From Clostridiales bacterium (GTDB taxonomy: Bacteria; Bacillota; Clostridia; Christensenellales; UBA3700), in the NCBI GenBank assembly GCA_014799575.1, contig JAAVHS010000015.1, positions 65,820 through 129,819 of the forward strand: a stretch of DNA of 64,000 nt, read 5' to 3'. Below are positions 7,068 through 62,493 of this stretch, in pieces. The notes beneath the pieces are model-generated. The model did no database searches. It saw only the letters and a list, made by a program, of their open reading frames with translations, and was not told where the DNA came from. Each line of letters starts with the position of its first letter. The stretch's first letter is position 1. Both the position numbers and the translations under genes were made by a program.

Positions 7068-7088
7068 CGTATTTCCCCCACTATAATT

Positions 7089-35872: not shown

Positions 35873-35930
35873 AAATTCGTTTAGTGCTATATCCTGCCAT
35901 TTAGCCGACGAATATCTAGTCGGCAAACAT

Positions 35931-37260: not shown

Positions 37261-37333
37261 GTAAAACATATGGAATTATACTAATAACACCAATGTATAT
37301 TTTGTACTCGCATGAATGGTATTTCAATTAACC

Positions 37334-37362
37334 TTGACTTAAATTTTAAAATTTGATAGAAT
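37334..37362 (+). promoter_or_regulatory. sigma-A-type promoter of HNH/P-loop gene
   Basis: TTGACT, 17 nt, TAGAAT, about 45 nt before ATG 37406. Confidence 0.55.
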
Positions 37363-37405
37363 GTTTACAAATATTTAGATCACATGTTTTAGAACGGAGT
37401 TACTC

Positions 37406-40855: not shown

Positions 40856-42508
40856 TTACATCTCCAAATCTTTTTTCCTTGCTGCTCTCCTTTCCATATA
40901 TTCCAAATAATCAAGATACTCGTCATAGTCATCGAAACCTAGTTTCGCCATTTCTTCTTTGGCTTTCTTATATTCCGCAATAGAATTGTCCAAATCTTCC
41001 AAAATTTCGTCTTGACTCATTCTACTAGCCTTTTCAAGTATTTCTTTGACGTTAGGTTTAATCTCGTCCGTAGCCGCCTCTACGGGCTCAGGATTGACTT
41101 GTGCTTGTGTCTGCACTTGCGCTGGGACTTTCCCTTGCGCTTGTTCGTGTTCAGCGCCTCTAAAAATGTTAGACAACAATGCTTTCGTTTCATATTGGTC
41201 TTGTTCGTCATGCTCCATCATTTCGCCGCCGAACGCATTAGTGAGTGTATTCGCCACATTGAGTTTTGACGAATAGTTCAAATGGCTATAAATATCTGCC
41301 GTCGTGCTTATAGCCGAATGACCTAACCACTCTTGAATTTCTTTCATACTCACACCGCACGCAAGCAAGAGACTTGCGCAACTGTGCCTAAGTTCGTGGA
41401 ATCTTATTTTCGGCAACTCATTCTGCGTAAGAAAATTTTGGAAATGACAAGTTAGCGTATTAGGATTTACTATCATTCCTATCTCATCAACCCAAACATA
41501 GTCTATATATTCTTGATTATAATACTTGCCGAACTCAGCCTTATTCTTGTCTTGTTCTGCTTTTAATTTTAGCAACGCTTCTTTTATTTCGGGTATCAAC
41601 GGCATTGTTCTCTTGCTTGCAGCATTTTTCATCACGTCCTTTTTTACAAGTACCGTTTTGTTGTTTACACTTGCTTGAACTATAGATGAATTGAGCGTGA
41701 GTTTGTTGTTATCAAAGTCTATCGAACTCCACCTCATACCGCAAAGCTCACTACGACGCAAACCGTAGAACGCAGTCATCTTATACATCAATTCATACTT
41801 ATCTCCTTTCAATTTTTCAAACAAAACTTTCAACTGTTTTAAGTCATAATACTTGGCTTCGTATTTTGGGCTTTTGGGCTTCTCTACCTTTGACGCTGGA
41901 TTTACTTGAATCCTATCCGTTCTATATGCAATCTCCAATGCTCTCCGAATAATAACGTGAGCGTGCGTACAAGACTGAACACTCTTGCCATTATCTATCA
42001 GCCATGCATAATATGTTTGTATGTCCATCGGACTTATGCCTTGCAAAGTTATTCCTCTGTCATTAAAATACGGAGCAATTTGTTTTATCTTGGCCTTGTA
42101 TGATGAATATGTACTAATCTGCAAATTAGTTTTCGCCATCTCAATCCACTGCGCTAGATAATCGCCAAACAACATATCTTCGCCCATATATTGTCTCGCT
42201 TGATACATATAACCCGATTGCAGCATAGGTTGTCCTTGCATCATGTATGTAGGTTGCGGTTGCCACATATTCTGCGGCTTTCGAGATTTAGGCATTTTAA
42301 TCTTACGCGTACCATTCTTCTTGACAAGTTCTTCTACTTGCGGATCAAAGTTCGCAACAATATCACGCATCAACTCTTCGGCTATTCTCTTATTATTTTT
42401 CACAGGCAAACCCGTTGCCTTCCATTTTTGTTTATTCTTTCCTTGTGAATCTTGATATGATATGACTACGTAATATCTTCCATTCTTAACTACTAATCTT
42501 CCAGTCAT
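40856..42508 (-). CDS. int: tyrosine recombinase/integrase (Tn916/phage-type) with unusual insertions
   Basis: N-terminal arm-binding-type region: MTGRLVVKNGRYYVVISYQDSQGKNKQKWKATGL. Catalytic region: HELRHSCASLLLACG...LGHSAISTTADIYSHL. At 550 aa it carries a Q/P/M-rich insert and an acidic C-terminal extension of about 130 aa. Confidence 0.9.
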   Translation of the reverse strand: MTGRLVVKNGRYYVVISYQDSQGKNKQKWKATGLPVKNNKRIAEELMRDIVANFDPQVEELVKKNGTRKIKMPKSRKPQNMWQPQPTYMMQGQPMLQSGYMYQARQYMGEDMLFGDYLAQWIEMAKTNLQISTYSSYKAKIKQIAPYFNDRGITLQGISPMDIQTYYAWLIDNGKSVQSCTHAHVIIRRALEIAYRTDRIQVNPASKVEKPKSPKYEAKYYDLKQLKVLFEKLKGDKYELMYKMTAFYGLRRSELCGMRWSSIDFDNNKLTLNSSIVQASVNNKTVLVKKDVMKNAASKRTMPLIPEIKEALLKLKAEQDKNKAEFGKYYNQEYIDYVWVDEIGMIVNPNTLTCHFQNFLTQNELPKIRFHELRHSCASLLLACGVSMKEIQEWLGHSAISTTADIYSHLNYSSKLNVANTLTNAFGGEMMEHDEQDQYETKALLSNIFRGAEHEQAQGKVPAQVQTQAQVNPEPVEAATDEIKPNVKEILEKASRMSQDEILEDLDNSIAEYKKAKEEMAKLGFDDYDEYLDYLEYMERRAARKKDLEM

Positions 42509-43653: not shown

Positions 43654-45111
43654 TTAGTCCAATAAAGATTGTTTATTGAATAATGTTCCATCCATTGGAA
43701 TTATTTTAATATCTTCAAATATTTCATGATAATCATTGATAGAAGCTATGAACACCTGGTGATCAGCAAAATCTCGTTTAATGATAGTTAACATAGTTCT
43801 AATAGTCTCATCCTCTATCTCTCTTCCACTTGGTGAATCGCAAAATATTGGAAGTGGATATCCAACTTTCTCACTTAATAATTTAATATAAACTAGTTTA
43901 TGCATAAATACCATTTTATGTAGTACTGCACCTGATTTTGATTTTAACTTGTGCGTAAAAATATCTATTTTATACGCAGGAGAAAGCCCTAGCTCTAAAG
44001 TATACCCTTCAATTATTTTATACGCCTTATCAATCCAATCATTGGAGGCTTTTGTCCGTTTAAGTAATTGTTCATTGATAGCCTTTCTTTCTTTTTTCAA
44101 TTTATCAACTAAAGATTGGGCCTCTATTGTTCCTATTCTTTTAACATCGGCAAGTCGTCTAACCAAGTCCTCTTCCACATTAGGAATATTTTCAAAAGAA
44201 ATTTGTTTTCTTTGTGTAGATTCTATTTCTGCAATTCGCTGTTTTATTGCATTCTTTTCTGACACAAGTAAAAATTTCCGCGCCTCATTCGACTCGAATA
44301 CCTGCTGATAATTATATAAATTATGCCTAGTTACCTGAATAATCTCTTGATCTAGTGTTTGAATATATATTTTCTTTTTTTCAATGTAATCAACAAAATC
44401 CTTATTGCCTTTAATGATTTCATTAATTTCTTTCAGTTCTTCCTCAACAATAGATAATCTCTGTTTCTTCTCAAGCAACTCCCTTTCAAGTGTCTCTCCA
44501 TAAGTATCATAACTTACTTTTTTATTCACTTCTATATTAATAGCATCTTGATACTCCGCAATGTTAACCATAAATTTGTACTGCGCTATTTTCTTATCTA
44601 TCTCCCTCAATTTTGATTCAAGCATACGACTTTCTTCGCTATCATCATCATTTAATCCTCTAAAAAAGTCTTCTATTGAAAAACGATTAATTCCTATAAT
44701 AGTGCCTCTATTTAATAATGTCCATCCCTTTTCTTGATCAAAATATATTGTACCTAATAAATTATCGAGCAAATTGTGGTCCATAATATTAAAGAGCATA
44801 GCTCTAATTGCTAACTCATCTACTGGCAAGCCATAGTCAACATCATTTATAGTTATTAAAGAATCTTTTCGAACTATATTAAATTCCGAACCATTAACTA
44901 TAATTCTCATAACAAATTCAAAATCACTAAATTTAATAAGTTCGGTGTCTGGAACATTAAATCCTAGCGTGTATAGAAAAGCACGTATTAAAGTAGTCTT
45001 TCCAGTAGAATTAGTATTGCTATGGAAATTAAAAACTGATTTATCCTCATCTATTACAGTCTTAAAATTAAAAGATTGTTTGTGCCGAAGTTTAAAGTTT
45101 ATTATCTTCAT
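43654..45111 (-). CDS. SMC/Rad50-like ABC ATPase, LmuB-like (DUF3732-type layout)
   Basis: N-terminal Walker A NSTGKTTLIRAFLYTLGF, a long central coiled coil (E/K/I/L heptads), then a C-terminal LPIFCDSPSGREIEDE ... DHQVFIAS (Walker B/H-loop-like). The 4-nt overlap with the upstream Cap4-nuclease gene indicates coupling. Confidence 0.6.
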   Translation of the reverse strand: MKIINFKLRHKQSFNFKTVIDEDKSVFNFHSNTNSTGKTTLIRAFLYTLGFNVPDTELIKFSDFEFVMRIIVNGSEFNIVRKDSLITINDVDYGLPVDELAIRAMLFNIMDHNLLDNLLGTIYFDQEKGWTLLNRGTIIGINRFSIEDFFRGLNDDDSEESRMLESKLREIDKKIAQYKFMVNIAEYQDAINIEVNKKVSYDTYGETLERELLEKKQRLSIVEEELKEINEIIKGNKDFVDYIEKKKIYIQTLDQEIIQVTRHNLYNYQQVFESNEARKFLLVSEKNAIKQRIAEIESTQRKQISFENIPNVEEDLVRRLADVKRIGTIEAQSLVDKLKKERKAINEQLLKRTKASNDWIDKAYKIIEGYTLELGLSPAYKIDIFTHKLKSKSGAVLHKMVFMHKLVYIKLLSEKVGYPLPIFCDSPSGREIEDETIRTMLTIIKRDFADHQVFIASINDYHEIFEDIKIIPMDGTLFNKQSLLD

Positions 45112-46136
45112 TGTAAATTCGCCGCCTCTCGTACTTGTTCTATTTTTTTGTTTCTATTTATCATTGTTAATAGTGTTAATTTTACGACAGCTTGTCGAAC
45201 ATCGCTATCTTTAATTTCACTAAATGCATTTTCATATTTCTCCCAATTATCAATAACAAATTTGTATTTAAATTTAGTTCGTTCCTCAGAACTCAATAAT
45301 CTACGCTGTATGCTATATTCTGCTAGTGCCGGAGTTACAAAATCATATTCACAACACCGAGCAGTTATCAATTTAGTGTATTGTGAAGCAATTTCATCAT
45401 AATCTTCAAAGTCGCTAACTTTTTGAAATTCTTCTAATTTCACAGGATTATCAATTGCTAAAACTATAACGGGATACATTATCTCTTTTTTCTCTTTTGC
45501 AAAGCTCATTCCCTCTTTTGGCTTATCTGTGCAGTTAAGTGAGAATAAAGTATACCATTTATTCCAAAGCCGCTCAATATAAGAAGTATTACCTAAAGCA
45601 TCTTGTAAAAACTCTTTAATACTTTCTTTGATTGAGGCAAATTTATTATCACCTTCACCAAAGAATTTTAGAACATGAATATGAAACTTTTCTATCGGGA
45701 AATCATTCCCCACAATATCTTTCAATTTATTCTGGTCTTCCAATGGCAAACTTGAATAATCATATTGACTATCATAACTGGAATAAAATGGACTAATTTC
45801 TCTCGAGTTTGATAATGGATTTAATATATTAGTAATGTAAATTAATTGCACAAAATCAGAATTTTTCTTTACATCATCAGAGAGTGTTTCTAATGACTTT
45901 CTCAAATTATCATTTGCAGTATTCTGCTGATTCATCTGAGTTACAGACTTTGCTTGAGCATATATTTTCCCATTCGGCAAAGTGATCTCAATATCATCAT
46001 CTTTTCCTTCCATCTTTAACGCCGTAAACTCTTTGACATTCTCAAGCATTAACTTTATACCTGCCCCAACTTGAAATGCCCACCCAAAAGCAGATGCCGA
46101 TGCATTTCTATCTTTCTCTGATTTATCTGCCATCAT
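45108..46136 (-). CDS. Cap4-type (DUF4297) PD-(D/E)xK nuclease-domain protein, LmuA-like effector
   Basis: N-terminal SAFGWAFQVGAGIKLML...MEGKDDDIEITLPNGKIYAQAKSV matches the GFxYQ...D..E..QxK pattern of Cap4/DUF4297 nucleases. A C-terminal region of about 200 aa is unknown. Confidence 0.6.
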   Translation of the reverse strand: MMADKSEKDRNASASAFGWAFQVGAGIKLMLENVKEFTALKMEGKDDDIEITLPNGKIYAQAKSVTQMNQQNTANDNLRKSLETLSDDVKKNSDFVQLIYITNILNPLSNSREISPFYSSYDSQYDYSSLPLEDQNKLKDIVGNDFPIEKFHIHVLKFFGEGDNKFASIKESIKEFLQDALGNTSYIERLWNKWYTLFSLNCTDKPKEGMSFAKEKKEIMYPVIVLAIDNPVKLEEFQKVSDFEDYDEIASQYTKLITARCCEYDFVTPALAEYSIQRRLLSSEERTKFKYKFVIDNWEKYENAFSEIKDSDVRQAVVKLTLLTMINRNKKIEQVREAANLQ

Positions 46137-46541: not shown

Positions 46542-46949
46542 TCATATCAGTTCTTTAATTTTATCTATTAACTTCTCTCTATTTTTATTTTTTAACTCAC
46601 ATTCCCAAATACGAATTACCTTCCAACCTTTGTTAGTTAAATAATATGTAATATCCTTATCATGTTTTTTGTTATAATCGCGCTTTCTATCCCAAAACTC
46701 GGAATTCTCTTTAGGTGTAACGTTCCTACAATCGTGGCCATGCCAAAAACATCCATCAACAAAAACTACAACCTTTTTCTTTGGAAATACAAAATCCGGT
46801 TTTCCAATCAGCGGATAAGTTCTACGCCAACCTATAATATGTAACTCTTTAAAAATCGTTATCATTCTCAATTCAGTCGTTTTTGTATTTCTACTTTTAA
46901 CGGCCTTCATAACTGAAGACCGTTTTTCTTTGCAAAAGATATCACTCAT
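46542..46949 (-). CDS. vsr: very short patch repair endonuclease (Vsr)
   Basis: Start set at ATG 46949 (AAAGGTG SD; MSDIFCKEKRSSVMKAVKSRNTKTTE). GKPDFVFPKKKVVVFVDGCFWHGHDC core motif. Confidence 0.9.
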   Translation of the reverse strand: MSDIFCKEKRSSVMKAVKSRNTKTTELRMITIFKELHIIGWRRTYPLIGKPDFVFPKKKVVVFVDGCFWHGHDCRNVTPKENSEFWDRKRDYNKKHDKDITYYLTNKGWKVIRIWECELKNKNREKLIDKIKELI

Positions 46950-47022
46950 AACTACACACCTTTTACCATCAATTTCCCCTATACGTCTATTTATCAAATA
47001 AAAAAATATTCTTTTTTTTCGC

Positions 47023-47751
47023 TTACTTACTCACTTCGATAAGTTTTTTAAGCGTTATGTCTCTTATATCTTCGGAATCAAGATAATCAAAACTGCTAAT
47101 CGCAGCATAATGATTCAATTCTTTTTTGCATTTTCTAAAATAGTCATTAATACCTTTTTTCGGTCCAATAATTTCTCTAAAGTCCTGAATTGCCAAAAGA
47201 ATTCCTTTCATTCTCTTAAAATTTGCTCTATTTAACGTATCAAGTAAATCTTTCCCCAACATTTGGTTTTCAAATAAAATATTTGTTAAATGATAAGGAT
47301 CTTTGCAGTTAGGATCATAAGTCAAATGAGCCCACCACCAAAGTCTCGACAAACCATTAAAATAATAGAGCCCCATCATACCATCCCCAGGAACAAAATA
47401 CCTTTGCTCGGGACTACTATCGCTCCAACGATATCTCATATATTTACGGCACTCTTCATCCATATGGCACATATATGCCCACATGTACTTATTCGTTGCT
47501 TGTAGAGGTGTAATTTTAAAAGCTTCATACAAATTTCTGGCATTGACAAAGTCATCTTCACTTTTATCTTTAGCCATCGAGTAATAAGGACTAAATTTAT
47601 TCACTTGTTGAGAAGATATACCATACCATTCGACTCCCTTATTAAAACATGTGGGCACCCAATTATCGGTTAATAGATATTTTTCTCTATTCTCATCGAC
47701 AGAGCTTAATAGTCTATCGTATGCGTCTTCCGTAAAAAAACCTAACAACAT
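47023..47751 (-). CDS. hypothetical protein, member of GHKL cassette
   Basis: 242 aa. Conserved-looking aromatic block YYFNGLSRLWWWAHLTYD. No catalytic motif recognised. Its start overlaps the stop of the upstream gene by 1 nt. Confidence 0.7.
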   Translation of the reverse strand: MLLGFFTEDAYDRLLSSVDENREKYLLTDNWVPTCFNKGVEWYGISSQQVNKFSPYYSMAKDKSEDDFVNARNLYEAFKITPLQATNKYMWAYMCHMDEECRKYMRYRWSDSSPEQRYFVPGDGMMGLYYFNGLSRLWWWAHLTYDPNCKDPYHLTNILFENQMLGKDLLDTLNRANFKRMKGILLAIQDFREIIGPKKGINDYFRKCKKELNHYAAISSFDYLDSEDIRDITLKKLIEVSK

Positions 47752-48686
47752 TAGTCAACACCTCCAGTATTTACATATTCACCATTGTTTGTTTCTTCAT
47801 CAATCGTGTTCTTCATACTTATCAAACCATCATATGCGATGCCACCCAGGAGTTTGTCAGCTAATTCCACATATGAACGATCGTCAAATCCTTCTTCCAA
47901 ATTAACGCCCATTCCCTGCAATTTATACTCAATAGCTTTGAACCACCTTTTCTCAGAATATCCACTGTCATCATTTTGATAGTGCTCATAAATTTTAGCA
48001 ATACCTTCCACCAATACGGGGTATACGACAATCCCGTTAAGATATCTATGTAAAGCCCCATTGTTAAAATCCTTGATATCATAAAAAAGTTGATTTAATC
48101 GTTCACTCAAGTAAACAACTATTTTTTCATCTATATCAAAATTCGCTTCAATCTCAGCTTCCGAATGTGTATTTTTTCTTATACTGAAAATAGAAGAAAT
48201 TGGCTTTTCTAACTCAGAGTCGTCAATAGGAATTGTTCTCATCTGACCTTGAGCCAACACATCGGCTTTTCTTACTGTAAAAGATATCTCCCTGAAATAT
48301 ATGTCGTTAAATTCTCCGTCGCAACGGAATGATTTAATGTCTTCTTTGGCAAGAATATATCCACAGAACTCAATATTCCTTTTTACGTCAAATTTCGGAA
48401 TTTTAATAACCTTTGTCAATTCCGCGGATTCAGTAGCATTAAACTCAAACGCTCTTCTATAAGATGCTGCGCTACTATAAATTAAAACGACAATCGCCGC
48501 TTTGCCCTGACGTATAAGTTCGGATAAACCATTGCATTTTAGTTCGCACTTGGCATTTATACATATATTATTCTCATCAACGATTATATCTTCTTCCTTA
48601 AAAGAAATATCAAAGGAACATCCGTCATTATAATCATCACCTTCAATAGAAAGCACCGGGTTAGGATAATCAATATTTAAACTCAT
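47751..48686 (-). CDS. hypothetical protein, member of GHKL cassette
   Basis: 311 aa, no motif recognised. Starts 1 nt after the GHKL ATPase stop. Confidence 0.7.
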   Translation of the reverse strand: MSLNIDYPNPVLSIEGDDYNDGCSFDISFKEEDIIVDENNICINAKCELKCNGLSELIRQGKAAIVVLIYSSAASYRRAFEFNATESAELTKVIKIPKFDVKRNIEFCGYILAKEDIKSFRCDGEFNDIYFREISFTVRKADVLAQGQMRTIPIDDSELEKPISSIFSIRKNTHSEAEIEANFDIDEKIVVYLSERLNQLFYDIKDFNNGALHRYLNGIVVYPVLVEGIAKIYEHYQNDDSGYSEKRWFKAIEYKLQGMGVNLEEGFDDRSYVELADKLLGGIAYDGLISMKNTIDEETNNGEYVNTGGVD

Positions 48687-48687
48687 T

Positions 48688-50685
48688 TTAAACTCCCTCT
48701 GAAAGAATTAATTTCACTCCCATTTTTTCTTTCTTTTCAAATATAATCATAAATTCTGCGGGATTATCTTTTTCTATTATCATTGGTCCCGCTTTCTTTC
48801 CATTGCAATTTACAGGCTTACCTTGATATGAAAATTTATTTATATTAAGAGTTTCCTTTTCCCCATCTTCACCCACAACAACACACTCCACAAAAAGCCG
48901 TTTGTAATCTTTTGCTGGAAATATAACCGCTTTGTATAATCCTATATTTGATTGTACTGGAAATGCTCTGCGCTTCGATAATTCTTTAATTGGTATGGTT
49001 CTATTTCCATTCCCTTCAACTACTCCCTTTTGTGTGGGTTTTGTTCCAGTTTGTACAATGGGATCTGGAGATTGCCCAGGATTCGGACCTGGCAATGGGC
49101 CTGGTCCTGGACCTGGATTAGGACCAGGTATAACATCTGGTATTGGTCCCATGTTTGATCCTTGATTGCCACCGTTATGAGACACTTCTTTTCCTTCATC
49201 TTCACGTCCCGGAACATCTGTTGACATAATTGTGTTTTTCTTAATTTTAGGTTTACCAATTTTGATTTTTACTTTAAGAATATCTTTTCCATTGCTATCT
49301 TCAGGAAGAGCGCCGTCTTCCGTATCAGCTAAGTATGCACTCATTCCAGGCGCATCTGTCGTATCACCGGCAGGACTTTCATATTGAGCCTTTAATATTC
49401 TCCAAAGTTCTTCATAAAGATCATCCAAAGCTTTTTTTGCATCATTGCGTTTTGATTTATTCGCCTCTCCCTTGATAAGTTTGTAATCCCAACGATTATG
49501 ACGCGGAGGTTCACATTCTCTCAATAGTTTTCCTAACTTCTCTCCTCTAACAATCATTATGGCTGCATAATGCTGAAACATGCGCTTAGACCCTTGCCCA
49601 ACCAACATTCCGTTAGAGCGGAAATTTGCAATAGTCCTTGCAAAAGAACTTTCAGCTTTAACATATATTTCAACTGCATCTTCTTCACCTAAAATTTCAA
49701 TTGACTTTTGATCGTCGGGAGTAGAAAAAGTTGAAAATAATTGGCGAGTAATCTCCAAATGACGATCGTTCTTAGAATATTCTTCAATAAACTCTGCGAC
49801 ACTTGTATCGTCAATACATTTCTTGTTTTGATTTTCATTCTTTATTTCTACAACGAGTCTTTTTTCGCGAATTGCAACAAAAAAATTTTTTATTACAGCT
49901 TTTGCTACATTATCTTGCCAATTGTCAGTTTCATTAAAGCCAACAATGATAACGTCTGTGCCATGTTCTTTTCTTACAAACAAATCCCTGAAATTATTAT
50001 CGTCTTCCTCGTAAATTGGCAACCATTCTTCTTTCTCATCATCATTTTTTTGATATCGTCCAATTCTTTGCGTTGGTTTACCCTCGTCATTCAAAAGAGT
50101 GGCAACTCGTCCTACGCCTACAAACGCTTTATTCTTGTTGACATCATAAGTGTTATAAAACACCATACTCAATGCAGAACAAGCAAATGGGGCATTTTTG
50201 CCAATACCAAAAGAACCTCCACTATTGTCATCGGATTTTACCGATATACCATCGGCACCAGTCAAAGCTTCCCATGGAGTATTTATGTTGTTGAGGTTAT
50301 GATTACCCAAAAGTCCTTTTGTATTATAATCACTTGCAACTAACACATTAACCTTATCCTTTCTCAATGTGTTTTCAGCTTCAGTTAAGAAACTTCCGAG
50401 TTTTGCATCAATATCTCCACCTACCGACCAAAACTCACGGCATCTTTCAAGACATTTTTTATATCCTAAAAATACGTCATACTTTTCGGTAGGAACAGTT
50501 TTTAATTCAAAAACAACCTTAACTGGTCCTTCAGCCTTATCATCGCGTGCATCCAAAGAATTTTGACAAATTTCACGTGCAAGATTATCAATTAATTCTT
50601 CGCCTTTAAATCCCTCAATGTCATTGTTCGTATATCCTTGTTTAGATCCACCAGATAACGGCGGAAATCTCCACGATATTTCCAT
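48688..50685 (-). CDS. GHKL-superfamily (MORC/Hsp90/MutL-like) ATPase with Pro/Gly-rich linker
   Basis: Start moved to ATG 50685 (AAGAGGA SD; MEISWRFPP). Bergerat-fold N box REICQNSLDA (Ex3Nx2D) and G box DDNSGGSFGIGKN. Linker GPIPDVIPGPNPGPGPGPLPGPNPGQSPDP precedes a C-terminal beta-rich domain of about 130 aa. Confidence 0.75.
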   Translation of the reverse strand: MEISWRFPPLSGGSKQGYTNNDIEGFKGEELIDNLAREICQNSLDARDDKAEGPVKVVFELKTVPTEKYDVFLGYKKCLERCREFWSVGGDIDAKLGSFLTEAENTLRKDKVNVLVASDYNTKGLLGNHNLNNINTPWEALTGADGISVKSDDNSGGSFGIGKNAPFACSALSMVFYNTYDVNKNKAFVGVGRVATLLNDEGKPTQRIGRYQKNDDEKEEWLPIYEEDDNNFRDLFVRKEHGTDVIIVGFNETDNWQDNVAKAVIKNFFVAIREKRLVVEIKNENQNKKCIDDTSVAEFIEEYSKNDRHLEITRQLFSTFSTPDDQKSIEILGEEDAVEIYVKAESSFARTIANFRSNGMLVGQGSKRMFQHYAAIMIVRGEKLGKLLRECEPPRHNRWDYKLIKGEANKSKRNDAKKALDDLYEELWRILKAQYESPAGDTTDAPGMSAYLADTEDGALPEDSNGKDILKVKIKIGKPKIKKNTIMSTDVPGREDEGKEVSHNGGNQGSNMGPIPDVIPGPNPGPGPGPLPGPNPGQSPDPIVQTGTKPTQKGVVEGNGNRTIPIKELSKRRAFPVQSNIGLYKAVIFPAKDYKRLFVECVVVGEDGEKETLNINKFSYQGKPVNCNGKKAGPMIIEKDNPAEFMIIFEKKEKMGVKLILSEGV

Positions 50686-50701
50686 AGTTAATCCTCTTAT
50701 G

Positions 50702-50920
50702 TTACAGTTTAAATTTTTCTTCATCAGAGCCTGTAGCCAAATACTTCATTTTAGCCGCTCTTAATTCTTTTTCTAATGTGTTAAAAATCTTATTAACATC
50801 TGCTTCCGTATAATCGTAATTTGCTTTATTTGAACAATTCCCCAATAATCTTAGCATGTCGATTATTTTATTGGTTCTGTTTTCTACGATTCTAACAAAT
50901 TTATCTCGTTTAGTTTCCAT
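50702..50920 (-). CDS. small hypothetical protein, first gene of GHKL cassette
   Basis: 72 aa from ATG 50920 (AGGAGA SD 9 nt upstream; METKRDKFVRIVENRTNKIIDML...). Helical. Ends 16 nt before the GHKL start. Confidence 0.6.
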   Translation of the reverse strand: METKRDKFVRIVENRTNKIIDMLRLLGNCSNKANYDYTEADVNKIFNTLEKELRAAKMKYLATGSDEEKFKL

Positions 50921-50952
50921 ATATTGCAATCTCCTAAAAATATTCTACGTAT

Positions 50953-50981
50953 ATATTACAATATCTAAACATGATTGTCAA
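50953..50981 (-). promoter_or_regulatory. sigma-A-type promoter of GHKL cassette
   Basis: On the minus strand: TTGACA (50976-50981), 17 nt, TAATAT (50953-50958). Lies in the 176-bp gap downstream of dcm. Confidence 0.55.
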
Positions 50982-51105
50982 TAGCAATTTGCAAGATTTT
51001 GAAAATGTTTTTCATATATTGCAATATTTGAAAAATGTAGTTGATTTTTAAAACAAAAAATGAACTTTTTACAGCTCATTTTGATTATAAGGTTGCCTTC
51101 GATTA

Positions 51106-52341
51106 TTAGTCTTCATCAACTAATAGATCGATAATTTTATTCGCAAACGCAATCGCCATTAATGGTGGAACCGCATTACCAACTTGTTTTACAACGTCCG
51201 ATCTATTTCCTTCGAAATAATACCAATCCGGAAAAGATTGTATTCTAGCGCCTTCTCTTGGCGTTAAAGCTCTATCCTGCTCATAATGAATGCATCGTAA
51301 ACCGGAAGGCGTAGCTAAATTGTTTGTTATTGTAGTAGATGGCTTATTTCGTTCTAGTCTCCCATACGTATTTCCATACCCTGATGTCAAGTAATATTTA
51401 CTATCAATTAATCCAGCAGCAACTTTGGCATTAAAATCGTCCTTTCCCTCACCTTCATTAACATTCTCTATTACAGTTCTAATTTTATCCCCATAAGTTC
51501 CACAAAAATGCACTGTAAGTTTATCGCAATCTCTACGCATAAGTTTTTGATAATCAGTCATAGGCGGCTTATCGTATTCCTCTATTGTTTGCCCTTCGCC
51601 AACCTCCGGCAAATCCGAAATTGCTTGATATACTGAAATAGTTTGCTTACCGTCACCTTTCGGATAATCCCACTCTATATTCAAGCCATCTCTTACGCCT
51701 ATAATGAAAACCCTTTCCCTGATTTGTGGAACTCCAAAATCCGTTGCTAGCATAGTTTTGGTACAAATCTTATACCCAATATCGTTAAACTTGCGTTGTA
51801 ACACGTCAATTACAAGATCACCATAATGATCCACTACAGGTTCTAATCGAGTAAATTCTTTGTCTCCTCTATGCTTTATAACTTCCTTTGTGACAACTTG
51901 TCCATTTTTATCAGTTTTATAAAAGATTTCTCTCATAGACAGAATACCTTTTACATTTTCAAATAAAAACATTTTCGGTTTAATCTTCTCGAGTAATCTT
52001 AAGTACTGATGCGACAATTTTGCTCTATCGTCATATTTTCTTTGACCAACGGTACTAAACGATTGACAAGGTGGACCGCCAATTATCACATCCACTTCCT
52101 CGCCTTTTAGCATTTCGTCAATTTTTTCATCTGTGATTGCACAAATATCACCCTCAATCATTGGGATATCACTGCCGTAGTTTTTCCTAAATGCCGCCGC
52201 CGCTTTTGGAGCAAATTCATTTGCAAACACAAATTGAACGTTATTTCTTTTAACAAAACGTTTGTTTATTAAGTCATAATAAAATCCAAAAGTTAAACCA
52301 CCAACTCCGGAAAACAAATCTACAATTTTACACTTTTTCAT
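51106..52341 (-). CDS. dcm: DNA (cytosine-5)-methyltransferase
   Basis: Motif I DLFSGVGGLTFGF, motif IV GGPPCQSFS, motif VI FENV, motif VIII QIRERVFIIG, motif X GNAVPP; 411 aa. Confidence 0.93.
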   Translation of the reverse strand: MKKCKIVDLFSGVGGLTFGFYYDLINKRFVKRNNVQFVFANEFAPKAAAAFRKNYGSDIPMIEGDICAITDEKIDEMLKGEEVDVIIGGPPCQSFSTVGQRKYDDRAKLSHQYLRLLEKIKPKMFLFENVKGILSMREIFYKTDKNGQVVTKEVIKHRGDKEFTRLEPVVDHYGDLVIDVLQRKFNDIGYKICTKTMLATDFGVPQIRERVFIIGVRDGLNIEWDYPKGDGKQTISVYQAISDLPEVGEGQTIEEYDKPPMTDYQKLMRRDCDKLTVHFCGTYGDKIRTVIENVNEGEGKDDFNAKVAAGLIDSKYYLTSGYGNTYGRLERNKPSTTITNNLATPSGLRCIHYEQDRALTPREGARIQSFPDWYYFEGNRSDVVKQVGNAVPPLMAIAFANKIIDLLVDED

Positions 52342-52527: not shown

Positions 52528-52920
52528 TTATTTATTAGGTCGCAACCTGTTTCTAAATAAACGAGACAATGTATTAACATTTAGTTCGCCGTCTTTGATT
52601 GACAGCACTTTTGTGCCATTCTCAACAAGAAAGCCTATCTCTTCCGTTATTTCTATTGATGAGTTGCCAAGCACAGCGAGTTCCATAATAAGTAATTCAT
52701 CAAATTCGTGGTATTTGGCTTGCAATCTTAAATTTTTATATGTGAGTGCGCCCATTGTTCCACTCTCCATATAAGTACGAACTACCGCAAGTCCGTTTGT
52801 TTTGACATAACAATCTAGTATATCATTTTGCTCTTGCAACTCTGAGTTATCACCCTTTGATGAACGGCAATACAATATTGCCCTATTCTTGCTTTCTTTA
52901 TTTAACACTTGATCATTCAT
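52528..52920 (-). CDS. serine recombinase (resolvase) catalytic-domain-only protein, possibly a remnant
   Basis: Start at ATG 52920 (GGGGGGAAGAG SD). RAILYCRSSKGDNSELQEQ resembles the resolvase active-site Ser block. There is no C-terminal HTH, and the usual DRLGR block reads LAVLGN. Confidence 0.55.
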   Translation of the reverse strand: MNDQVLNKESKNRAILYCRSSKGDNSELQEQNDILDCYVKTNGLAVVRTYMESGTMGALTYKNLRLQAKYHEFDELLIMELAVLGNSSIEITEEIGFLVENGTKVLSIKDGELNVNTLSRLFRNRLRPNK

Positions 52921-53092
52921 ATAATCTCTTCCCCCCTTATAAAATAAAAAAGAGTTTGACTGCCTCTGCAAATCAAACCCTCTCTGTTAACCGACGGATT
53001 AAATGATTTCCTATTCAACTACAATTATCCTAACATATTTATTCCGGTTTGTAAATTAAAATAGAAAAATTTTTATAATCATATAATTAATT

Positions 53093-54889
53093 CTATTTAT
53101 CTATCTCCCCAAGCACAACTCCACACTTTGGACATATACTTTTCAATTTCCAGCCTGTTACTTCTTCATCGAATCTAAACGATGAAACTGCATAAGGTCC
53201 CATAATTGTTTCATATTTCATCAACTGAAAATAATACGGTTTTTCTTTTACTGCATCAGTAATCGTTTTTTCATTTAACAATAAAGAATCGTCCACATAT
53301 TTTATCCACAATAAATTTTCCTCTTTACAGTTTGAACAGCTGGTCATTGATATTCTATGACCACATTCGTGGCAGTCTATATAGTCAGTTCCTTTGCGTA
53401 CTTTAGTTGAGCCACACAATGGACAGGTCGATGGCATAGTGCGGAAATCTTTATTGCGCAATATATGCGAATTGATAATTCTTTGTATATGTAAGAAATT
53501 GTATCGCAAATCTAATGGCGATAGGATTTGTATCCCCGTCTTATAATAAGACTTGTTTTCAATATCCTTCTCGTCCTTTGCATAATTATCGCCTATATTA
53601 AACAGCCTTCTATAAATCGTCTCGCCGAAATCATTTGATGCGCTACATGCGTTTATATCCAAAGATACAAAACAATACTTGCTCGTAACTTGGCTTCGTT
53701 TTTCTCTCTTAGACAGTGCGCTTATTATGTCGGTCGTTCTATCGTCTACTTGACTCCTGCTCATTCCTTCAAAATTGGTATAATCAGTATATATTTCAAA
53801 TACGTCATACTTATTCGCTTTCTCATCTATCAACAACGATAACACTACTTTATGTTCTTTGGGCACAAGACTTATTCTTATCTGCGTATCGCCCTTTATC
53901 CAAATCATATCGCCATTTATCGTAAGAACGTCATCGTCATAATTTATGATTGGATTATTGCGTTCTTCATAACCGCTGTTGTGCATAGATGCTATAACGT
54001 TGAAAACAACATAGGCATAATAATAGTTAGAATATTGCTTTTCCTCTTCTTCGTCAAAAGAATAATCTTCTTCTTGATGTACTGAATTCAAATACTCCCA
54101 CAACTTGTAGCAACGATTGTAATTTGCATCGAACATTATGATATTTGTTTTTTCGATAGGACTTTTAACCTTACGACACTTTCTCAACTTGCTGTAAAAA
54201 TCCGAATATCTTAAGTTAACGATTTTTCTTTCCAGAGCCCTGACTTCATCAAGTTCATCACGCATATGCGCAGTATATCCAGCAGCAACGCTTGAATTAT
54301 TATCTTTTGATAAAACTTTCAGCAATCTATCGCTGTTGGCCTGCATTCTGATGTAGTTATTCCTAGAATTGTCTAATACGCTCAAAATATTATTATCTTC
54401 GACTTGTCCATATAGATTTTCAAGTTTTATACGTCGAGCAGCCACGCTAAGTATTATTCTATCGATTAACGTTTTTACGAATCTATTTTCGTACAAATCA
54501 ATCGTTTCTTCGTTGATATCGGAAACAATATTCTTTGGTTTTACAGTCAAGAACGTACGCGCATACCAATCGTTACTATTCCTACCCAAATGCAGAATAG
54601 CGTTACTATTAATTCTTTTAGCCGTTTCAACTGGGACTTTCTCTTCGATTGACTTTATGAACGAACGCGGTTTCTCTACTATGCGTTGTATGTAAGGAAT
54701 CGCTTTTTTTATCTCCTTCACACAATCCTCATCAATAACCTTAGTTCCCTCTTCGTCATTAAATTGTAAGAGAATCTTCTTGGTAGAAAAGCCGTCTATT
54801 AATTCATCGATTCTTGCGCCATTAGGATAATACTCATAAAAGTCATCGAATACCCTATTAAACAAAAACTTTTCTTCTTCTAATCGCAT
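53093..54889 (-). CDS. McrC-like (DUF2357-type) partner protein with C-terminal zinc ribbons
   Basis: 598 aa, starting 3 nt after the McrB-like gene. DLYENRFVKTLIDRI block typical of DUF2357/McrC relatives. C-terminal CPLCGS..CHECGH, CSNC and CPKCG motifs. The nuclease motif is not clearly identifiable by eye. Confidence 0.6.
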   Translation of the reverse strand: MRLEEEKFLFNRVFDDFYEYYPNGARIDELIDGFSTKKILLQFNDEEGTKVIDEDCVKEIKKAIPYIQRIVEKPRSFIKSIEEKVPVETAKRINSNAILHLGRNSNDWYARTFLTVKPKNIVSDINEETIDLYENRFVKTLIDRIILSVAARRIKLENLYGQVEDNNILSVLDNSRNNYIRMQANSDRLLKVLSKDNNSSVAAGYTAHMRDELDEVRALERKIVNLRYSDFYSKLRKCRKVKSPIEKTNIIMFDANYNRCYKLWEYLNSVHQEEDYSFDEEEEKQYSNYYYAYVVFNVIASMHNSGYEERNNPIINYDDDVLTINGDMIWIKGDTQIRISLVPKEHKVVLSLLIDEKANKYDVFEIYTDYTNFEGMSRSQVDDRTTDIISALSKREKRSQVTSKYCFVSLDINACSASNDFGETIYRRLFNIGDNYAKDEKDIENKSYYKTGIQILSPLDLRYNFLHIQRIINSHILRNKDFRTMPSTCPLCGSTKVRKGTDYIDCHECGHRISMTSCSNCKEENLLWIKYVDDSLLLNEKTITDAVKEKPYYFQLMKYETIMGPYAVSSFRFDEEVTGWKLKSICPKCGVVLGEIDK

Positions 54890-54892
54890 ACC

Positions 54893-57106
54893 CTAAATCC
54901 TATCAATCATATTTTGAATGGCTTTTCTAGTCATTTTGAATTTATCATCTTTTTCCGATTTTCTCAAATCAGATAAAAACTCTTCCAATCCTTTCTTGGT
55001 AGATTCATCATAGAAGCCTTGAAGTTTGCGCAACACTTTCGTTACGAAAATTGTGTCAATTGCTTCTTCAATTTTACCACCACAAGTCACGTATGCCGGA
55101 ACAAACTTATAAATCTGTTTGCTAATACGATTGCCGAAGCTGATTTCAAAGTAAGTTTGCATACGCTCATCCAACCAATCCACATGGCCTTTTATTTCTT
55201 TTTTCATTTCCGGAGACAAACTGCTTGCATTTGTAAGCAAAACGTTGAGTTCCGCATAACTAACACCCCTTGGATAACTTGATTTATCCACTGAAAACTC
55301 TTCCTCTCTTTTATCGAACTCAAGAACTATTGCTCTATCGTACACTTTATCAGAAATGGCAAAAGTAGAATCGTCTTTATTTGCAGTACCTATAAACCAC
55401 GTATTATCTCCTATGGACAAATTGCCTTCAACAATATACTCCGGACAAACACCTCTTACGTCGCGTGATATCAAATTGACTTTACGATTTTCAGGTTTCT
55501 CTTCTTCCAATGCCGACAAGAAATCCGCGAAATAATACTCTATTCGAGACAAGTTCATTTCATCTAGCATGATTAAGTGCACGTTATTGCGATCTCTTGT
55601 TGCCCTATACAACGCCTCCAAGAACTTTGTTTCCTTATAGCGTTTTTCAAAATCATTATAGAAACCTAGTAAATCATTCCGATCTTTCCACGATGACTGC
55701 ACTTCGATTCTATCAGTTATAGACATCATATATTCGGCAAAGGCGTTTGGTAGACTTGATTTACCGGTACCGCTCATACCCTGCAAGATTATTATACGCG
55801 CTGCCGCCAATCCTGCAAAAAACGTCCTTATACTTTCCATCGAATAATATAGTGGATTATCATTCCTAGATGCTAGATAATTTCTAAAATCTTCGCATAT
55901 CTGTTTTAACGATCTACCAGTTCTTGGATAATCCGCAAGATTCTTCTCATCATCAATCGCGCTCAACGAGGCAAATACGTTGTCTTGACGACTATTATAA
56001 TTCTCCTGAATTCTATCCAATTCTCTTTGCAACTCAACGCGCTGCAATTCAAGAACCCTAATGAATCTTCTAGAATTCTCCAAATCATTGCGATATATAT
56101 CCAACTCAGCAAGTTTCCTATCCGTTTCTATTTTTTCTATCTTCAAATTTTTAAGTTCTTCAGCTATTTGTGAATTTTCATCTGCCGTCGTTCTCAAACG
56201 TACAATTTCATCATCTGCTGGCACTTTTGTCAATCTATCTCGAAGTTCCATATTTTCTTTTTCGAGACGATTACGCTCGTCAATCAACGCCGTTGGATTT
56301 TGACCGAATCTTTGAATTTGTCTATAATATTCTTCGTTTTCCGCTTTGCATTTTTTGTACGTTTCATCGAGAATTTGATTTTTCTGCTCCAATGAATCTA
56401 TTTTATGTTCGAGTTCCATCACGCGTTGTTTTCTTGCATCACTTTTCTCTAACTCTTGCATATAATAATCTTTATCGTCATTGCTTGAATTTAGTTCTCG
56501 TTCTTTCTTTTTAAGCTCCTTTACAAGTTCATCTTTTTCCTGTTCAAGCGACGCTATCGCAGAATTAAAACCTTTAATTTGCTCATCTACGTCTTTTAGC
56601 ACGTCCGTCTTATATGATTTCTTTTGGTTTTCCAACTCCAAAGAATCCTTTGTAAATTGTTCCATTTTGCTTGCTAATTCTTCATACTGCAAATCTAGAT
56701 TCTCTGTTTTTTGCTCTAATTCTTTTTGTTTAGCCTCCACGTCTTCTTTGACCAAGTGCGCTTGAGAAATAATTTTATCAGCCGCTATCTTGGCATCAGC
56801 TTCAGCTTCTTCTTTTACTTCTTTCTTATATTGACTCTGTACTTCGCCAATAGATTTCTCTACTTCTTTGTTTGCTTTCTCTATTATTTTTTTCTTTTCA
56901 GCCTCTCCTTCGTTAATTAAACGTTGCTTTTCTTCCTCGCCTTCTTGAATGAGTCTCTCCTTTTCCTTTTGGCCTTGTTCTCTTAATGCCTCTCTTTCCT
57001 CGGATGTCAACTCTACTTCTGGCTTAACTACCTTTACAGTTTCTTGCTTTACTGTCGGTTGAGGACGATTATTATTACTCTTATTGCCTTTATTTTTCTT
57101 TGCCAT
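54893..57106 (-). CDS. McrB-family AAA+ GTPase with ~400-aa N-terminal coiled coil
   Basis: Walker A GMSGTGKSS, Walker B/McrB block HLIMLDEMNLSRIEYYFADFLSALEE, FIGTANKDDSTFAISDKVYDRAIVLEF. The N-terminal K/E/Q/L heptad region runs from about aa 20 to 400. Confidence 0.8.
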   Translation of the reverse strand: MAKKNKGNKSNNNRPQPTVKQETVKVVKPEVELTSEEREALREQGQKEKERLIQEGEEEKQRLINEGEAEKKKIIEKANKEVEKSIGEVQSQYKKEVKEEAEADAKIAADKIISQAHLVKEDVEAKQKELEQKTENLDLQYEELASKMEQFTKDSLELENQKKSYKTDVLKDVDEQIKGFNSAIASLEQEKDELVKELKKKERELNSSNDDKDYYMQELEKSDARKQRVMELEHKIDSLEQKNQILDETYKKCKAENEEYYRQIQRFGQNPTALIDERNRLEKENMELRDRLTKVPADDEIVRLRTTADENSQIAEELKNLKIEKIETDRKLAELDIYRNDLENSRRFIRVLELQRVELQRELDRIQENYNSRQDNVFASLSAIDDEKNLADYPRTGRSLKQICEDFRNYLASRNDNPLYYSMESIRTFFAGLAAARIIILQGMSGTGKSSLPNAFAEYMMSITDRIEVQSSWKDRNDLLGFYNDFEKRYKETKFLEALYRATRDRNNVHLIMLDEMNLSRIEYYFADFLSALEEEKPENRKVNLISRDVRGVCPEYIVEGNLSIGDNTWFIGTANKDDSTFAISDKVYDRAIVLEFDKREEEFSVDKSSYPRGVSYAELNVLLTNASSLSPEMKKEIKGHVDWLDERMQTYFEISFGNRISKQIYKFVPAYVTCGGKIEEAIDTIFVTKVLRKLQGFYDESTKKGLEEFLSDLRKSEKDDKFKMTRKAIQNMIDRI

Positions 57107-57124: not shown

Positions 57125-58597
57125 TTATATAAGTTCTATAAATACTCTTGTTACGTTAAATAGTTTATCTACGTCAGCTTCATCGTAATAATACTTAACG
57201 GCTTGCTTATAATGACTGCCATTGTTTCTACTTTCATATAAATCAAACGCGTCTTCCGCGAATTCAAAATATAATTTCGAGTTATTACGCATCTTGGAAT
57301 TAGCCAAGAATAAACTTGCCAAATCCGCTTTAAAATGTTCCCATCCTCTTTGCCAATGTTTAAATATATCGTCTTTAAAAAATGGGCGGCCATTCACTCC
57401 TAGTTGTTTGCAAATATTTAATACTTCACTACAAAATTGTTTGTAATCAAAGTATTGCCTTCCTTGCAAATCCTTTCTATCTACAAACTGATGCATCAAG
57501 CACTCCAAATATCGTCCCAGTGAGTTATAATAACTTATATGTTTTGACGCAAATTCCTTATCTATCTCTATTAATAGCTTCTTCAAATCTTCATATTGCG
57601 TCGGTAGATGCTCGACCAATCTATAAACGTCACCAAATTTAGTTAACTGTTCGGCAACACCTTTTCGATAAATAAAGGTTTGCGTATCAGCCACTTTGGA
57701 TTCATGTTTAGCAATATTATGCTCCAACTCAAGTTTTTGCAAATATTTATCCAATTCTTCACTGACACTGCGAGCTTTTGCTAAGCGTTTATTCATCCAT
57801 TTCAACGTCACATTCGGGTCAAACGGTGTGTCTATAAACAAATTCTCTCCGTCCGTAAATACTGAGACTTCTAATTTGTATTCACATCTTACATTGTCTA
57901 AAAAATGTGCGCTAAAATTGTTAGTTGGATTTTTATCCTTCTCGGAGAAATCTTCATCAAAACTTGCAGTTTGTGGCATAAAATCAACTTCGGCATCTTC
58001 ATCGTAAAATTCCTCAGTTTCTTCTACTACATCATTATTATTAACGTTTATAGAACTCAGTCTATTAAACGTCAAATAAGCTTTTTTGATTTCATCTTGC
58101 GTAGGCTTATCCTTAATTCGCAATTTTAATTCAAGTTTCTCGCCTGAACTTGCATCTTTTAAATACTCATTATCTGTAAAGCATGGAACAATACCACCGC
58201 AAATTCCATCCTGAAAGACCCTTTGGACCGACACCTGAGAACTAAACAAATCCTCATATGTATCTAAAAATCCAAACGTCTCTTTGCTTAGATATGCATT
58301 GCTTCCACGTTGAACTTCATCTCTAACGATAAATTCTCTTTCTGCTTTAGAAATGATATTGTCAATAGTAACGTCGTCCAATAACGATGAAAACTTTTGC
58401 TTTATTATACGACGAACTTCGTCCTTTACCTCTTTAATATAACTTCTAGCATCCAATTTGCGTTCATCGTTTTGCTGAACTACTAACGACAAATACAGCC
58501 ACTCAAACAAATCTGTCCTAATTTGTTGTGGCATTAGCACGTCGTATCTTACGAACGGCCAAATGAAACTGCCAATGTATTTCCTACTTTCTTGCAT
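57125..58597 (-). CDS. hypothetical protein embedded in kinase-helicase-McrBC operon
   Basis: Start moved to ATG 58597 (AAGGAG SD 7 nt upstream; MQESRKYIGSFIWPF); 490 aa. No motif recognised. Confidence 0.7.
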   Translation of the reverse strand: MQESRKYIGSFIWPFVRYDVLMPQQIRTDLFEWLYLSLVVQQNDERKLDARSYIKEVKDEVRRIIKQKFSSLLDDVTIDNIISKAEREFIVRDEVQRGSNAYLSKETFGFLDTYEDLFSSQVSVQRVFQDGICGGIVPCFTDNEYLKDASSGEKLELKLRIKDKPTQDEIKKAYLTFNRLSSINVNNNDVVEETEEFYDEDAEVDFMPQTASFDEDFSEKDKNPTNNFSAHFLDNVRCEYKLEVSVFTDGENLFIDTPFDPNVTLKWMNKRLAKARSVSEELDKYLQKLELEHNIAKHESKVADTQTFIYRKGVAEQLTKFGDVYRLVEHLPTQYEDLKKLLIEIDKEFASKHISYYNSLGRYLECLMHQFVDRKDLQGRQYFDYKQFCSEVLNICKQLGVNGRPFFKDDIFKHWQRGWEHFKADLASLFLANSKMRNNSKLYFEFAEDAFDLYESRNNGSHYKQAVKYYYDEADVDKLFNVTRVFIELI

Positions 58598-58608
58598 ATT
58601 ATTCTCCT

Positions 58609-61600: not shown

Positions 61601-61797
61601 TCATCAGGAAAATCACTGAAATTTCGCACAACGAAATCCGATTCATCGTCAAGACTATTTAATTTATATTCTTTGCCATCGACAACGGCAAACAACGCCC
61701 CGCCTTTTTTCCGCAGTTTCTTAATTTGGTCAAGATTTACTTTTTCATCTATTGAAAAGTTGCCGGTTTGGCAAATATCTATTAAAAACTTATTCAT
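58609..61797 (-). CDS. Upf1/DNA2-like SF1 helicase (AAA_11/AAA_12 type) with ~420-aa unknown N-terminal region
   Basis: Walker A IQGPPGTGKTT, Walker B YVIIDEAARANP, VDSYQGKEFDIVLLS, INVALSRARRLLVVIGD; 1062 aa. The ATGA overlap with the PP2C gene indicates coupling. Confidence 0.85.
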   Translation of the reverse strand: MNKFLIDICQTGNFSIDEKVNLDQIKKLRKKGGALFAVVDGKEYKLNSLDDESDFVVRNFSDFPDEENESIYECNVVNNHLVVLLYVFSRVRRIDLESETMHFYLERMVKNQFEELGEIVGGDEIKFLQDEFMNNKSVFIAEYQGGSAIRTFQMYGNRYRANVEKERPGIYRIKKLTKIRVNNSIDRIIQIYGHVKFVTFDEAIKTKGHDAPLAEVHTNELFKAWQEFISFESKVFHDEVVELGYAKYKSYRNEGEEIVLQFEKNVDSFPLFGDRVKASSQEYDIVFSETGNSFKNIEEIIEQREKTRGATIRLGKALNESFDTNELIFNYPEIAVAIPEVGYVILSDRNIKTEERRRQSVMSVIERKSNSTSNMIMRLSAGEEDSQTGSDVEPITNDVLKKMFGRTDVELKENFRQAMFIALNTPDIALIQGPPGTGKTTLINGIIARLGAMGNKNYKILVSSEQHEALYNVVDKLSGNSIPPFVTSEKYSRDERAENEEKMRRNIQDFQGRFLDLCNRILNERTQKDRFSDILTKLIFDVQTIVDKKYSQEIIAEKIENITRYVMTMGLWDDVKDIVAQIEAKLRNSGVSYEDEREGMDFIKRKLNSQRLDIDAFYEDDGEYQLDELQRVIKRYGYNYLLIDQALKDELFATRDESTFKKYLNYVDSIRSEIDPQKDEFELAITTYKELFDSLLNRIRQVAKYRKKDFYDIIEALKYKMSDADNVRDIIMKYTNVIGSTCAQADRSSSMIDLSGNKYDYVIIDEAARANPLDIMIPVLMGTRVIMVGDQMQLPHYVETDYVRRFKNEKEKYSNFDETLLTKSIFQVLYDSLEKSWNERKLKFRRHIRIQEQHRMHPKIGGFISEQFYERKIIDENGIERIEGGIENGQTTISKINDFNIFSGENMVWQDVPITEGMEEKSSYKLSRPAEADKVIEIVQDIVRKNSSRDYKIGIMSFYKGQVELINKLLKDKFPDEDLRKIECNTVDSYQGKEFDIVLLSTTRSNREIDIEKSLGFIHYSKSRINVALSRARRLLVVIGDAETMTRNDVFKNYVRCATKVK

Positions 61798-62492: not shown

Positions 62493-62493
62493 A

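Follow-up and report, generated by a model that had tools for sequence, protein, structure and literature searches.

The cassette analysed here lies on the minus strand of a 64,000-nucleotide stretch of Clostridiales bacterium DNA (contig JAAVHS010000015.1; this whole stretch is hereafter termed the window). It comprises a C5 cytosine DNA methyltransferase gene (dcm), a four-gene core and a very-short-patch endonuclease gene (vsr). The core consists of a gene for a 72-residue protein (S72) followed by the genes for proteins A, B and C, the last three of which form an intact copy of the PADLOC candidate system PDC-M33, which settles the identity of the cassette. The family has already been catalogued and is mechanistically uncharacterised; what is added here is the structural assignment of A as a GHKL ATPase, a fourth core gene, a quantified linkage to C5 methylases and a conserved promoter. 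A role in defence is likely, owing to the mobility of the cassette, its island context and the PADLOC prediction, and self is probably distinguished from foreign DNA by methylation. With a confidence slightly short of even, we favour a restriction-like module guarded by methylation, in which Vsr would be the repair partner of Dcm rather than the effector.

Cassette identity and the fold of protein A

The core proteins were identified with the PADLOC hidden Markov models (HMMs) PDC-M33A, PDC-M33B and PDC-M33C (E-values of 1.3e-125, 1.5e-49 and 1.3e-38), which were matched end to end, each near full length, by three adjacent co-directional genes in the same A-B-C order. No other PADLOC defence model matched any of the three. 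The initial annotation, made from the sequence alone, had held that the gene set matched no named defence system, which is superseded by the matches to PDC-M33A/B/C and by the assignment of C to Pfam DUF6339. It had also described the 311- and 242-residue proteins (B and C) as devoid of recognisable motifs, and no Pfam or PDB profile match was obtained for B. Payne et al. 2024 (bioRxiv 10.1101/2024.01.29.577857) list PDC-M33 in their supplement as CAS_00129, with 98 occurrences and the status "assigned as candidate"; it belongs to a set of 145 untested candidates proposed through "guilt by embedding", with homologues embedded in BREX, DISARM or type I restriction-modification (R-M) systems. 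Public plasmid and phage records label A and B "hypothetical protein" and C "DUF6339 family protein". The A family comprises 1,390 close matches and 2,675 clusters at 50% identity (E ≤ 1e-3), nearly all of 620–680 residues, and extends over many phyla, plasmids and a temperate phage; its ATPase carries no Pfam domain, and no effector has been recognised. PDC-M33 is a three-gene, unannotated model; S72, the GHKL fold and the near-obligate methylase all fall outside its definition, and its annotation should label A as a GHKL ATPase and add the small gene.

In the AlphaFold model of A, a GHKL plus transducer module (residues 1–435), with a predicted local distance difference test score (pLDDT) above 90, is followed by a disordered Pro/Gly linker (~437–568) and a C-terminal β-sandwich (570–665). 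All 25 PDB matches obtained with Foldseek at E ≤ 1e-3 were GHKL plus transducer modules, with SMCHD1 the best (E 7e-7, probability 1.00) and Topo VI-B, GyrB 43K, GRP94, ParE and MORC4 among the others; the TM-scores were modest, at 0.36–0.48 relative to the targets. Bergerat motifs I–IV were present in order (E38, Q41, N42 and D45; D119, T122 and G124; G157, S158, G160 and G162; G242, (T243) and D244) and were invariant or nearly so in 36 sequences with identities down to 25%, among which A165, K150, M360, E392, H396 and W399 were likewise invariant. The strings REICQNSLDA and DDNSGGSFGIGKN, quoted in the initial annotation, were both found in A. Sequence profiles were blind to this relationship: Pfam HATPase_c and HATPase_c_3 did not match A of the window, one of 36 diverse family members matched HATPase_c_3 (E 0.043), PDB profile searches with two alignments retrieved no GHKL protein, and hhalign against E. 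coli MutL aligned the N box alone, at a probability of 2.5%. The description of this protein as a GHKL ATPase is thus upheld by the AlphaFold model, the Foldseek matches and the invariant motifs, and by no HMM.

Judged from the model, A is a clamp-type GHKL ATPase and not specifically a MORC. The epithet "MORC-like" used initially was too narrow, since the match to MORC4 is no better than those to SMCHD1, Topo VI-B and GyrB; membership of MORC/paraMORC was rejected because MORC4 ranked 17th, after those three, and HATPase_c_3 gave no match. Of the operon partners of MORC/paraMORC, neither a helicase nor a nuclease was recognised in the core operon. Separately, residues 392–399, at the end of the transducer domain, form an invariant E-P-P-x-H-x-x-W loop, for which we are aware of no equivalent in GyrB, MutL or MORC.

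Conservation of the core and its linkage to C5 methylases

Neighbourhoods were compared by scanning one genome per species, which yielded 167 loci, the best 80 of which were analysed. The order S72-A-B-C was kept in about 70 of these 80 loci, and conservation of gene order extends over Clostridia, Negativicutes, Bacteroidota, Melainabacteria, Bacillales, Actinomycetota, Deinococcus and one methanogen; with strong HMM matches and an order repeated in independent genomes, the array is not a product of chance. S72 was encoded directly upstream of A in 70 of the 80 loci, as well as in phage and plasmid copies, and its median pairwise identity was 64%, compared with 37% for A, 31% for B and 41% for C from the same loci. 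It is therefore a fourth core component and the most conserved part of the cassette, absent from the PADLOC model.

Linkage was counted over the 49 loci whose flanking sequence reached 3 kb or more on both sides. In 45 of them a C5 methylase lay no more than 3 kb from the core, in 38 no more than 500 nt, and vsr lay within 3 kb in 33; dcm occurred without vsr in 13 of the 45 dcm-linked loci. These counts, together with the presence of the B and C genes beside the ATPase gene in essentially every relative, bear out the initial proposal of a methylase-linked defence candidate. The position and strand of dcm and vsr varied, with Vsr-Dcm-S72-A-B-C the commonest layout and that of the window, with dcm upstream and vsr downstream, in the minority. 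Although found on either side of the core, vsr was usually upstream, overlapping dcm and sometimes on the opposite strand; it overlapped the end of C in L089 and L092. The methylase gene was placed within the operon in L089 (IMG/VR contig, 6689–11924; S72-Dcm-A-B-C-Vsr), and Dcm-A-B-C without the small gene was found in L075 (2569–5618) and L078 (5378–10002). Lactobacillales copies lacked vsr. Two copies without a nearby methylase were decayed: L020, in which A has no N-terminus and B is split, and L064, in which a fragment of A alone remains.

A recognisable restriction enzyme adjoined the core in only ~10–15 of 69 loci, the 129 nearest flanking genes of which included R.HpaII (six; eight loci once other evidence is added), LlaJI (two), NgoFVII (two), HNH (two) and Mrr (three). 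Since most loci carry no rival restriction enzyme, the core in most of them occupies the place where such an enzyme would be. Copies were found on plasmids, in a temperate phage beside its integrase and in defence islands: the core lies between the integrase and a C5 methylase in a temperate [Clostridium] innocuum phage, beside dcm-vsr on a Deinococcus plasmid, and beside a Sau3AI-like restriction enzyme plus dcm on a Priestia plasmid, and an Arthrobacter plasmid carries dcm-vsr-R beside small-A-B-C-Shedu. A prophage or satellite is the suggested carrier of the copy in L005 (641–5347), since genes for a phage capsid and for a D5-type primase-helicase flank it. In L021 (1860–12596), the core operon and a 1055-residue RecQ-like helicase with two small genes all stand between dcm and vsr, so that two modules share one Dcm...Vsr bracket.

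The partner methylases fell into at least 12 clusters, which mostly followed the phylogeny of A. In partial Mantel tests, which are prone to false positives with related sequences, the divergence of C tracked that of the methylase beyond A (r 0.36, p 0.001), and A and B did not co-vary with Dcm once C was controlled. As to whether C is a matched specificity subunit, the result is mixed, as C of L014 kept 75% identity to its relatives although the methylase there had been exchanged for one of another family. A PDB profile search and a relaxed Pfam scan of C gave no remote matches beyond DUF6339, and C is the remaining candidate for an effector or specificity role. The AlphaFold model of B (pLDDT 79) consists of a β-sandwich (residues 25–193) and a C-terminal helical bundle, for which Foldseek returned weak immunoglobulin/FN3-like matches alone, none at E ≤ 1e-3, and few polar residues are kept in distant orthologues. 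On this model, B is probably an adaptor or structural subunit. A hidden nuclease in B was considered and rejected, given the β-sandwich/helical model, the immunoglobulin/FN3-like matches and a DDSELEK acidic patch that is not kept in distant orthologues. The source names "LAGLIDADG-2" for a homologue of C and "Peptidase S74" for a homologue of B, both from one metagenome-assembled genome, found no support in the scans and were disregarded.

The core is predicted to be a four-gene operon with a strong promoter of its own. In the window, a −35 element TTGACA (50981–50976) and a −10 element TAATAT (50958–50953) are separated by a 17-nt spacer, and a promoter scan of this single locus was not above chance, with 30 promoter-like sites versus 28.5 expected in AT-rich DNA. 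Among related loci, TTGACA was found upstream of the S72 gene in 91% of 65, compared with 10% of control windows, and in 59 of 66 the consensus TATTGACAAAT...TATAAT, accompanied by an upstream element rich in A/T, lay ~62 nt ahead of the start codon. The promoter was accepted because of this comparative evidence, the single-locus scan carrying no weight; the element called initially is thus present and conserved across loci, and the window by itself would not have sufficed to call it. Two ATTGCAAT palindromes occur in the window, at 51018–51025 and 50923–50930, the second overlapping the S72 start codon, and palindromes with a TTGCAA core were clustered 100–120 nt upstream in 22 of 65 loci, versus 12% of controls. 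With S72 considered as an R-M controller (C) protein, the upstream palindromes (ATTGCAAT/TTTGCAAA) were enriched, and a scan of 20 S72 homologues gave no helix-turn-helix (HTH), Pfam or PDB match. In eight loci (L005, L007, L009, L013, L015, L019, L023 and L070), a 121–138-residue HTH_3/HTH_31 protein is encoded just before vsr-dcm, ~1.6 kb upstream of the core; it may act as the genuine controller-type regulator of such modules.

Proposed mechanism and competing explanations

A methylation-guarded module is favoured because the methylase linkage spans phyla and is sometimes operonic, restriction enzymes are few, and copies without a methylase decay. In such a module, Dcm would mark the host genome and so protect self DNA, the dcm of the window being the probable self-marking partner of the cassette, and DNA entering without the mark would be countered by a complex of S72, A, B and C, working as a restriction-like module driven by ATP. 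By analogy with GyrB, MutL and MORC, A may dimerise on ATP into a DNA clamp, for which B would serve as adaptor and C as effector or reader. Vsr, which is assigned to repair because vsr tracks dcm and not the core, would solely mend T:G mismatches arising from 5-methylcytosine deamination. If the methylase dependence holds true, the cassette would represent a new multi-subunit, GHKL-driven arm of restriction-modification and would put to the test the 2008 prediction of MutL/MORC-like ATPases in R-M systems. Experimental handles are provided by the conservation of S72, which exceeds that of the enzymes, by a methylase swap in L014 (see below) and by the dcm-containing operons.

The cassette belongs to a class of R-M-like systems with GHKL proteins that was predicted long ago; in this class, GHKL genes beside cytosine methylases and Vsr were proposed to be R-M components (Iyer, Abhiman, Aravind 2008, PMC2292703). 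Like the MORC/paraMORC systems of that study, it has a GHKL plus S5/transducer ATPase in mobile operons, often with cytosine methylases and Vsr; unlike them, its operon contains neither a superfamily II helicase nor a recognisable nuclease, the usual partners there. The sole validated defence relative found is VcSduA (Shedu type I-D), an unrelated fusion protein in which a paraMORC3 GHKL is joined to a DUF4263 nuclease and whose proven anti-phage activity requires the GHKL ATPase (PMC12137116). VcSduA consists of one polypeptide that includes a PD-(D/E)xK nuclease, whereas the cassette has no DUF4263 or fusion and includes three extra proteins and a methylase. Classical type II C5 R-M systems with Vsr (HpaII-type, M-R-V) possess the same methylase and Vsr genes, the core standing at the R position with its own promoter; they differ in having one endonuclease rather than four genes and an ATPase, and some relatives of the cassette also hold a true R.HpaII, LlaJI, NgoFVII or Sau3AI-like enzyme. 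In Hhe, a Vsr-like domain is fused to a helicase, unlike the Vsr of the window, a single-domain protein of 135 residues for which PADLOC returns its generic Vsr model alone. BREX and DISARM class 2 are multi-gene, ATPase-containing systems in which a methylase marks self and foreign DNA is blocked other than by simple cleavage; none of the models for their core proteins was matched by A, B or C.

Several observations weigh against a methylation-guarded module. No nuclease or other effector fold was recognised in S72, A or B, and a full-text search of the literature yielded no experiments on PDC-M33 or DUF6339; searches joining GHKL with Vsr or methyltransferase found no characterisation of the cassette. 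L080, a distant, intact-looking copy between queA and tgt, has no methylase within 8 kb. Several loci already possess a full type II R-M system beside the core (HpaII, Sau3AI-like, LlaJI, NgoFVII and Arthrobacter R-M-V), where the core would be a second restriction arm. Ligilactobacillus megaplasmids carry HsdS-HsdM-A-B-C, with a type I partner, and the methylase has been swapped in L014: relative to one clade, identity is 67% for its A, 60% for its B, 75% for its C and 25% for its Dcm, whereas its Dcm reaches 79% with that of another clade (L005-like and L025-like loci being compared). Such swaps and the type I partner are hard to reconcile with a fixed sequence specificity. Because of the missing effector, the loci with full R-M and the interchangeable methylases, an embedded or guard-type system stays in contention, and the same weak points leave room for a nuclease-free clamp of the MORC kind.

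The cassette could also be a defence system in its own right, lodged in R-M modules or travelling with them and blind to methylation of the target DNA; this is unlikely but must be taken seriously. As a variant, a PrrC-like guard would watch the methylase or R-M complex and fire when a phage inhibits it. Such a system would fit the discovery of PDC-M33 through embedding in other systems, the full R-M flanking the core in Priestia, Arthrobacter and HpaII loci, the range of partners over C5 type II, type I and AlwI-type, the exchangeable methylase of L014, and the RecQ-like helicase module within the same Dcm...Vsr bracket in L021. However, a methylase linkage of 92% across phyla exceeds what co-travel would lead one to expect, dcm is inside the operon in some lineages, and most loci have an orphan methylase and no restriction enzyme to guard. 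Rather improbable is a nuclease-free system in which the GHKL protein would be an ATP-driven clamp, as eukaryotic MORC and SMCHD1 are, and, with B, C and S72, would entrap, compact or silence DNA devoid of host cytosine methylation; this would amount to prokaryotic methylation-guided xenogeneic silencing in place of a restriction enzyme.

Three further explanations are considerably weaker. The initial annotation had pointed to Vsr as the only evident nuclease, and Vsr is indeed the sole recognisable one of the cassette and vsr array as read in the window; recruited or activated by a MutL-like GHKL ATPase, it would be the effector. The overlap of vsr with the end of C in L089 and L092 would agree with this, as would a reported functional interaction of E. 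coli MutL with Vsr that figures in the reference list of PMC2292703. We consider this very unlikely, as vsr follows dcm and not the core, is missing from the 13 dcm-linked loci mentioned above and from the Lactobacillales copies, is mostly upstream and overlaps dcm, sometimes on the other strand, and encodes in the window a canonical, stand-alone protein above the TIGR00632 cutoff. There is little to commend a non-defence accessory for very-short-patch repair, or for other damage due to C5 methylases, carried along with mobile dcm-vsr and with A in the role of MutL. The MutL-like fold of A and the tight linkage to dcm and vsr speak for it, but there are copies with dcm and no vsr and copies with N6/type I partners, the sites are defence islands, plasmids and integrase-proximal positions in prophages, and the operon has no MutS-like or excision function. 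Both the effector and the repair ideas were downgraded by the neighbourhood statistics. Just as poorly placed is a modification-dependent, type IV-like module against hypermodified cytosine DNA that escapes the neighbouring C5-based R-M; the co-location with C5 R-M modules and, in some islands, with Mrr/McrBC-like genes would suit it, but neither A nor B showed an SRA, EVE, MBD or other reader fold, and the operonic dcm and the decay of methylase-less copies fit methylase dependence better.

Locus layout and the surrounding island

All six open reading frames (ORFs) of the array were confirmed where the initial annotation had placed them, in the transcription order dcm, promoter, S72, A, B, C and vsr (Table 1). 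The junctions read from the sequence also agree with those given initially: gaps of 16 nt between S72 and A and of 1 nt between A and B, an overlap of 1 nt between B and C, and 73 nt from C to the vsr ATG. The ATPase ORF exists as described, with its length corrected from 666 residues to 665 when counted from the second ATG. The full vsr ORF extends over 46542–46997, with the stop end at 46542. In the translation of dcm, the motifs FxGxG, PCQ, ENV, QxRxR and GNAVPP are all readable, and its nearest solved relatives are M.HaeIII and M.HhaI; the PADLOC models DrmMII and DruM also match, as they would any C5 methylase. The Vsr protein matches Pfam Vsr (8e-23) and TIGR00632 (107 bits, cutoff 98). 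With a stand-alone Vsr and a C5 methyltransferase bearing the catalytic motifs, the two genes can be read as a Dcm-Vsr pair; no restriction enzyme model of Pfam or PADLOC matched the window genes between 46.5 and 52.4 kb, which thus do not constitute a recognisable type II R-M system. The cassette region has a GC content of ~30–36%, as part of a low-GC island, versus ~43% upstream.

Table 1. Features of the cassette in window coordinates.
Feature	Coordinates	Strand	Evidence
dcm, C5 cytosine DNA methyltransferase, 411 aa	51106..52341	-	PF00145 5e-62, TIGR00675, catalytic motifs
Intergenic promoter region of the core operon	50921..51105	-	Motif positions and comparative promoter evidence
S72, 72-aa core protein	50702..50920	-	ATG and AGGAG ribosome-binding site; precedes A
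A, divergent GHKL ATPase (from model), 665 aa from second ATG	48688..50685	-	PDC-M33A, model, motifs
B, predicted β-sandwich and helical bundle, 311 aa	47751..48686	-	PDC-M33B, model
C, DUF6339 protein, 242 aa	47023..47751	-	PF19866 4e-38, PDC-M33C
vsr, T:G mismatch endonuclease (very-short-patch), 135 aa from likely ATG 46949	46542..46949	-	Pfam Vsr, TIGR00632

A tRNA-Ser gene (anticodon tga; 33786–33874, plus strand) stands exactly where the GC content drops from ~43% to ~30% and is likely the integration site and left boundary of the island. It is followed on the plus strand (34052–40033) by three very-low-GC genes (27–31%) which, going by their translations only, encode a 606-residue protein with a Walker A motif (DACIGSGKT) and a UvrD-like look, a 392-residue protein, and an 875-residue protein with an N-terminal HNH-like motif (HHID...CLECHN) and a P-loop (GESGSGKS); these genes may be another defence module. 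Two low-GC blocks are separated by a tyrosine integrase gene (40856–42508, minus strand; Phage_integrase 3.5e-21), an arrangement suggestive of a composite island. A pair of minus-strand genes for 342- and 485-residue proteins (43654–46136) corresponds to PADLOC PDC-M46A/B (5.5e-73 and 4.5e-115), the B component of which also resembles Lamassu LmuB.

On the other side of the cassette, directly upstream of dcm, a 147-residue ORF (52528–52971, minus strand) consists of an N-terminal resolvase domain alone and is probably a recombinase remnant at the module junction. A McrBC-like pair (53093–57106, minus strand) comprises a 598-residue DUF2357 (McrC-type) protein with C-terminal Cys clusters and a 737-residue partner in which a long coiled coil accompanies an AAA region that matches PDC-M26A. 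Further minus-strand genes (57125–63906), all in one direction, encode a 501-residue protein, a 1062-residue SF1 helicase, a PP2C phosphatase and a Ser/Thr kinase; the helicase matches Mokosh MkoA (5.9e-102).

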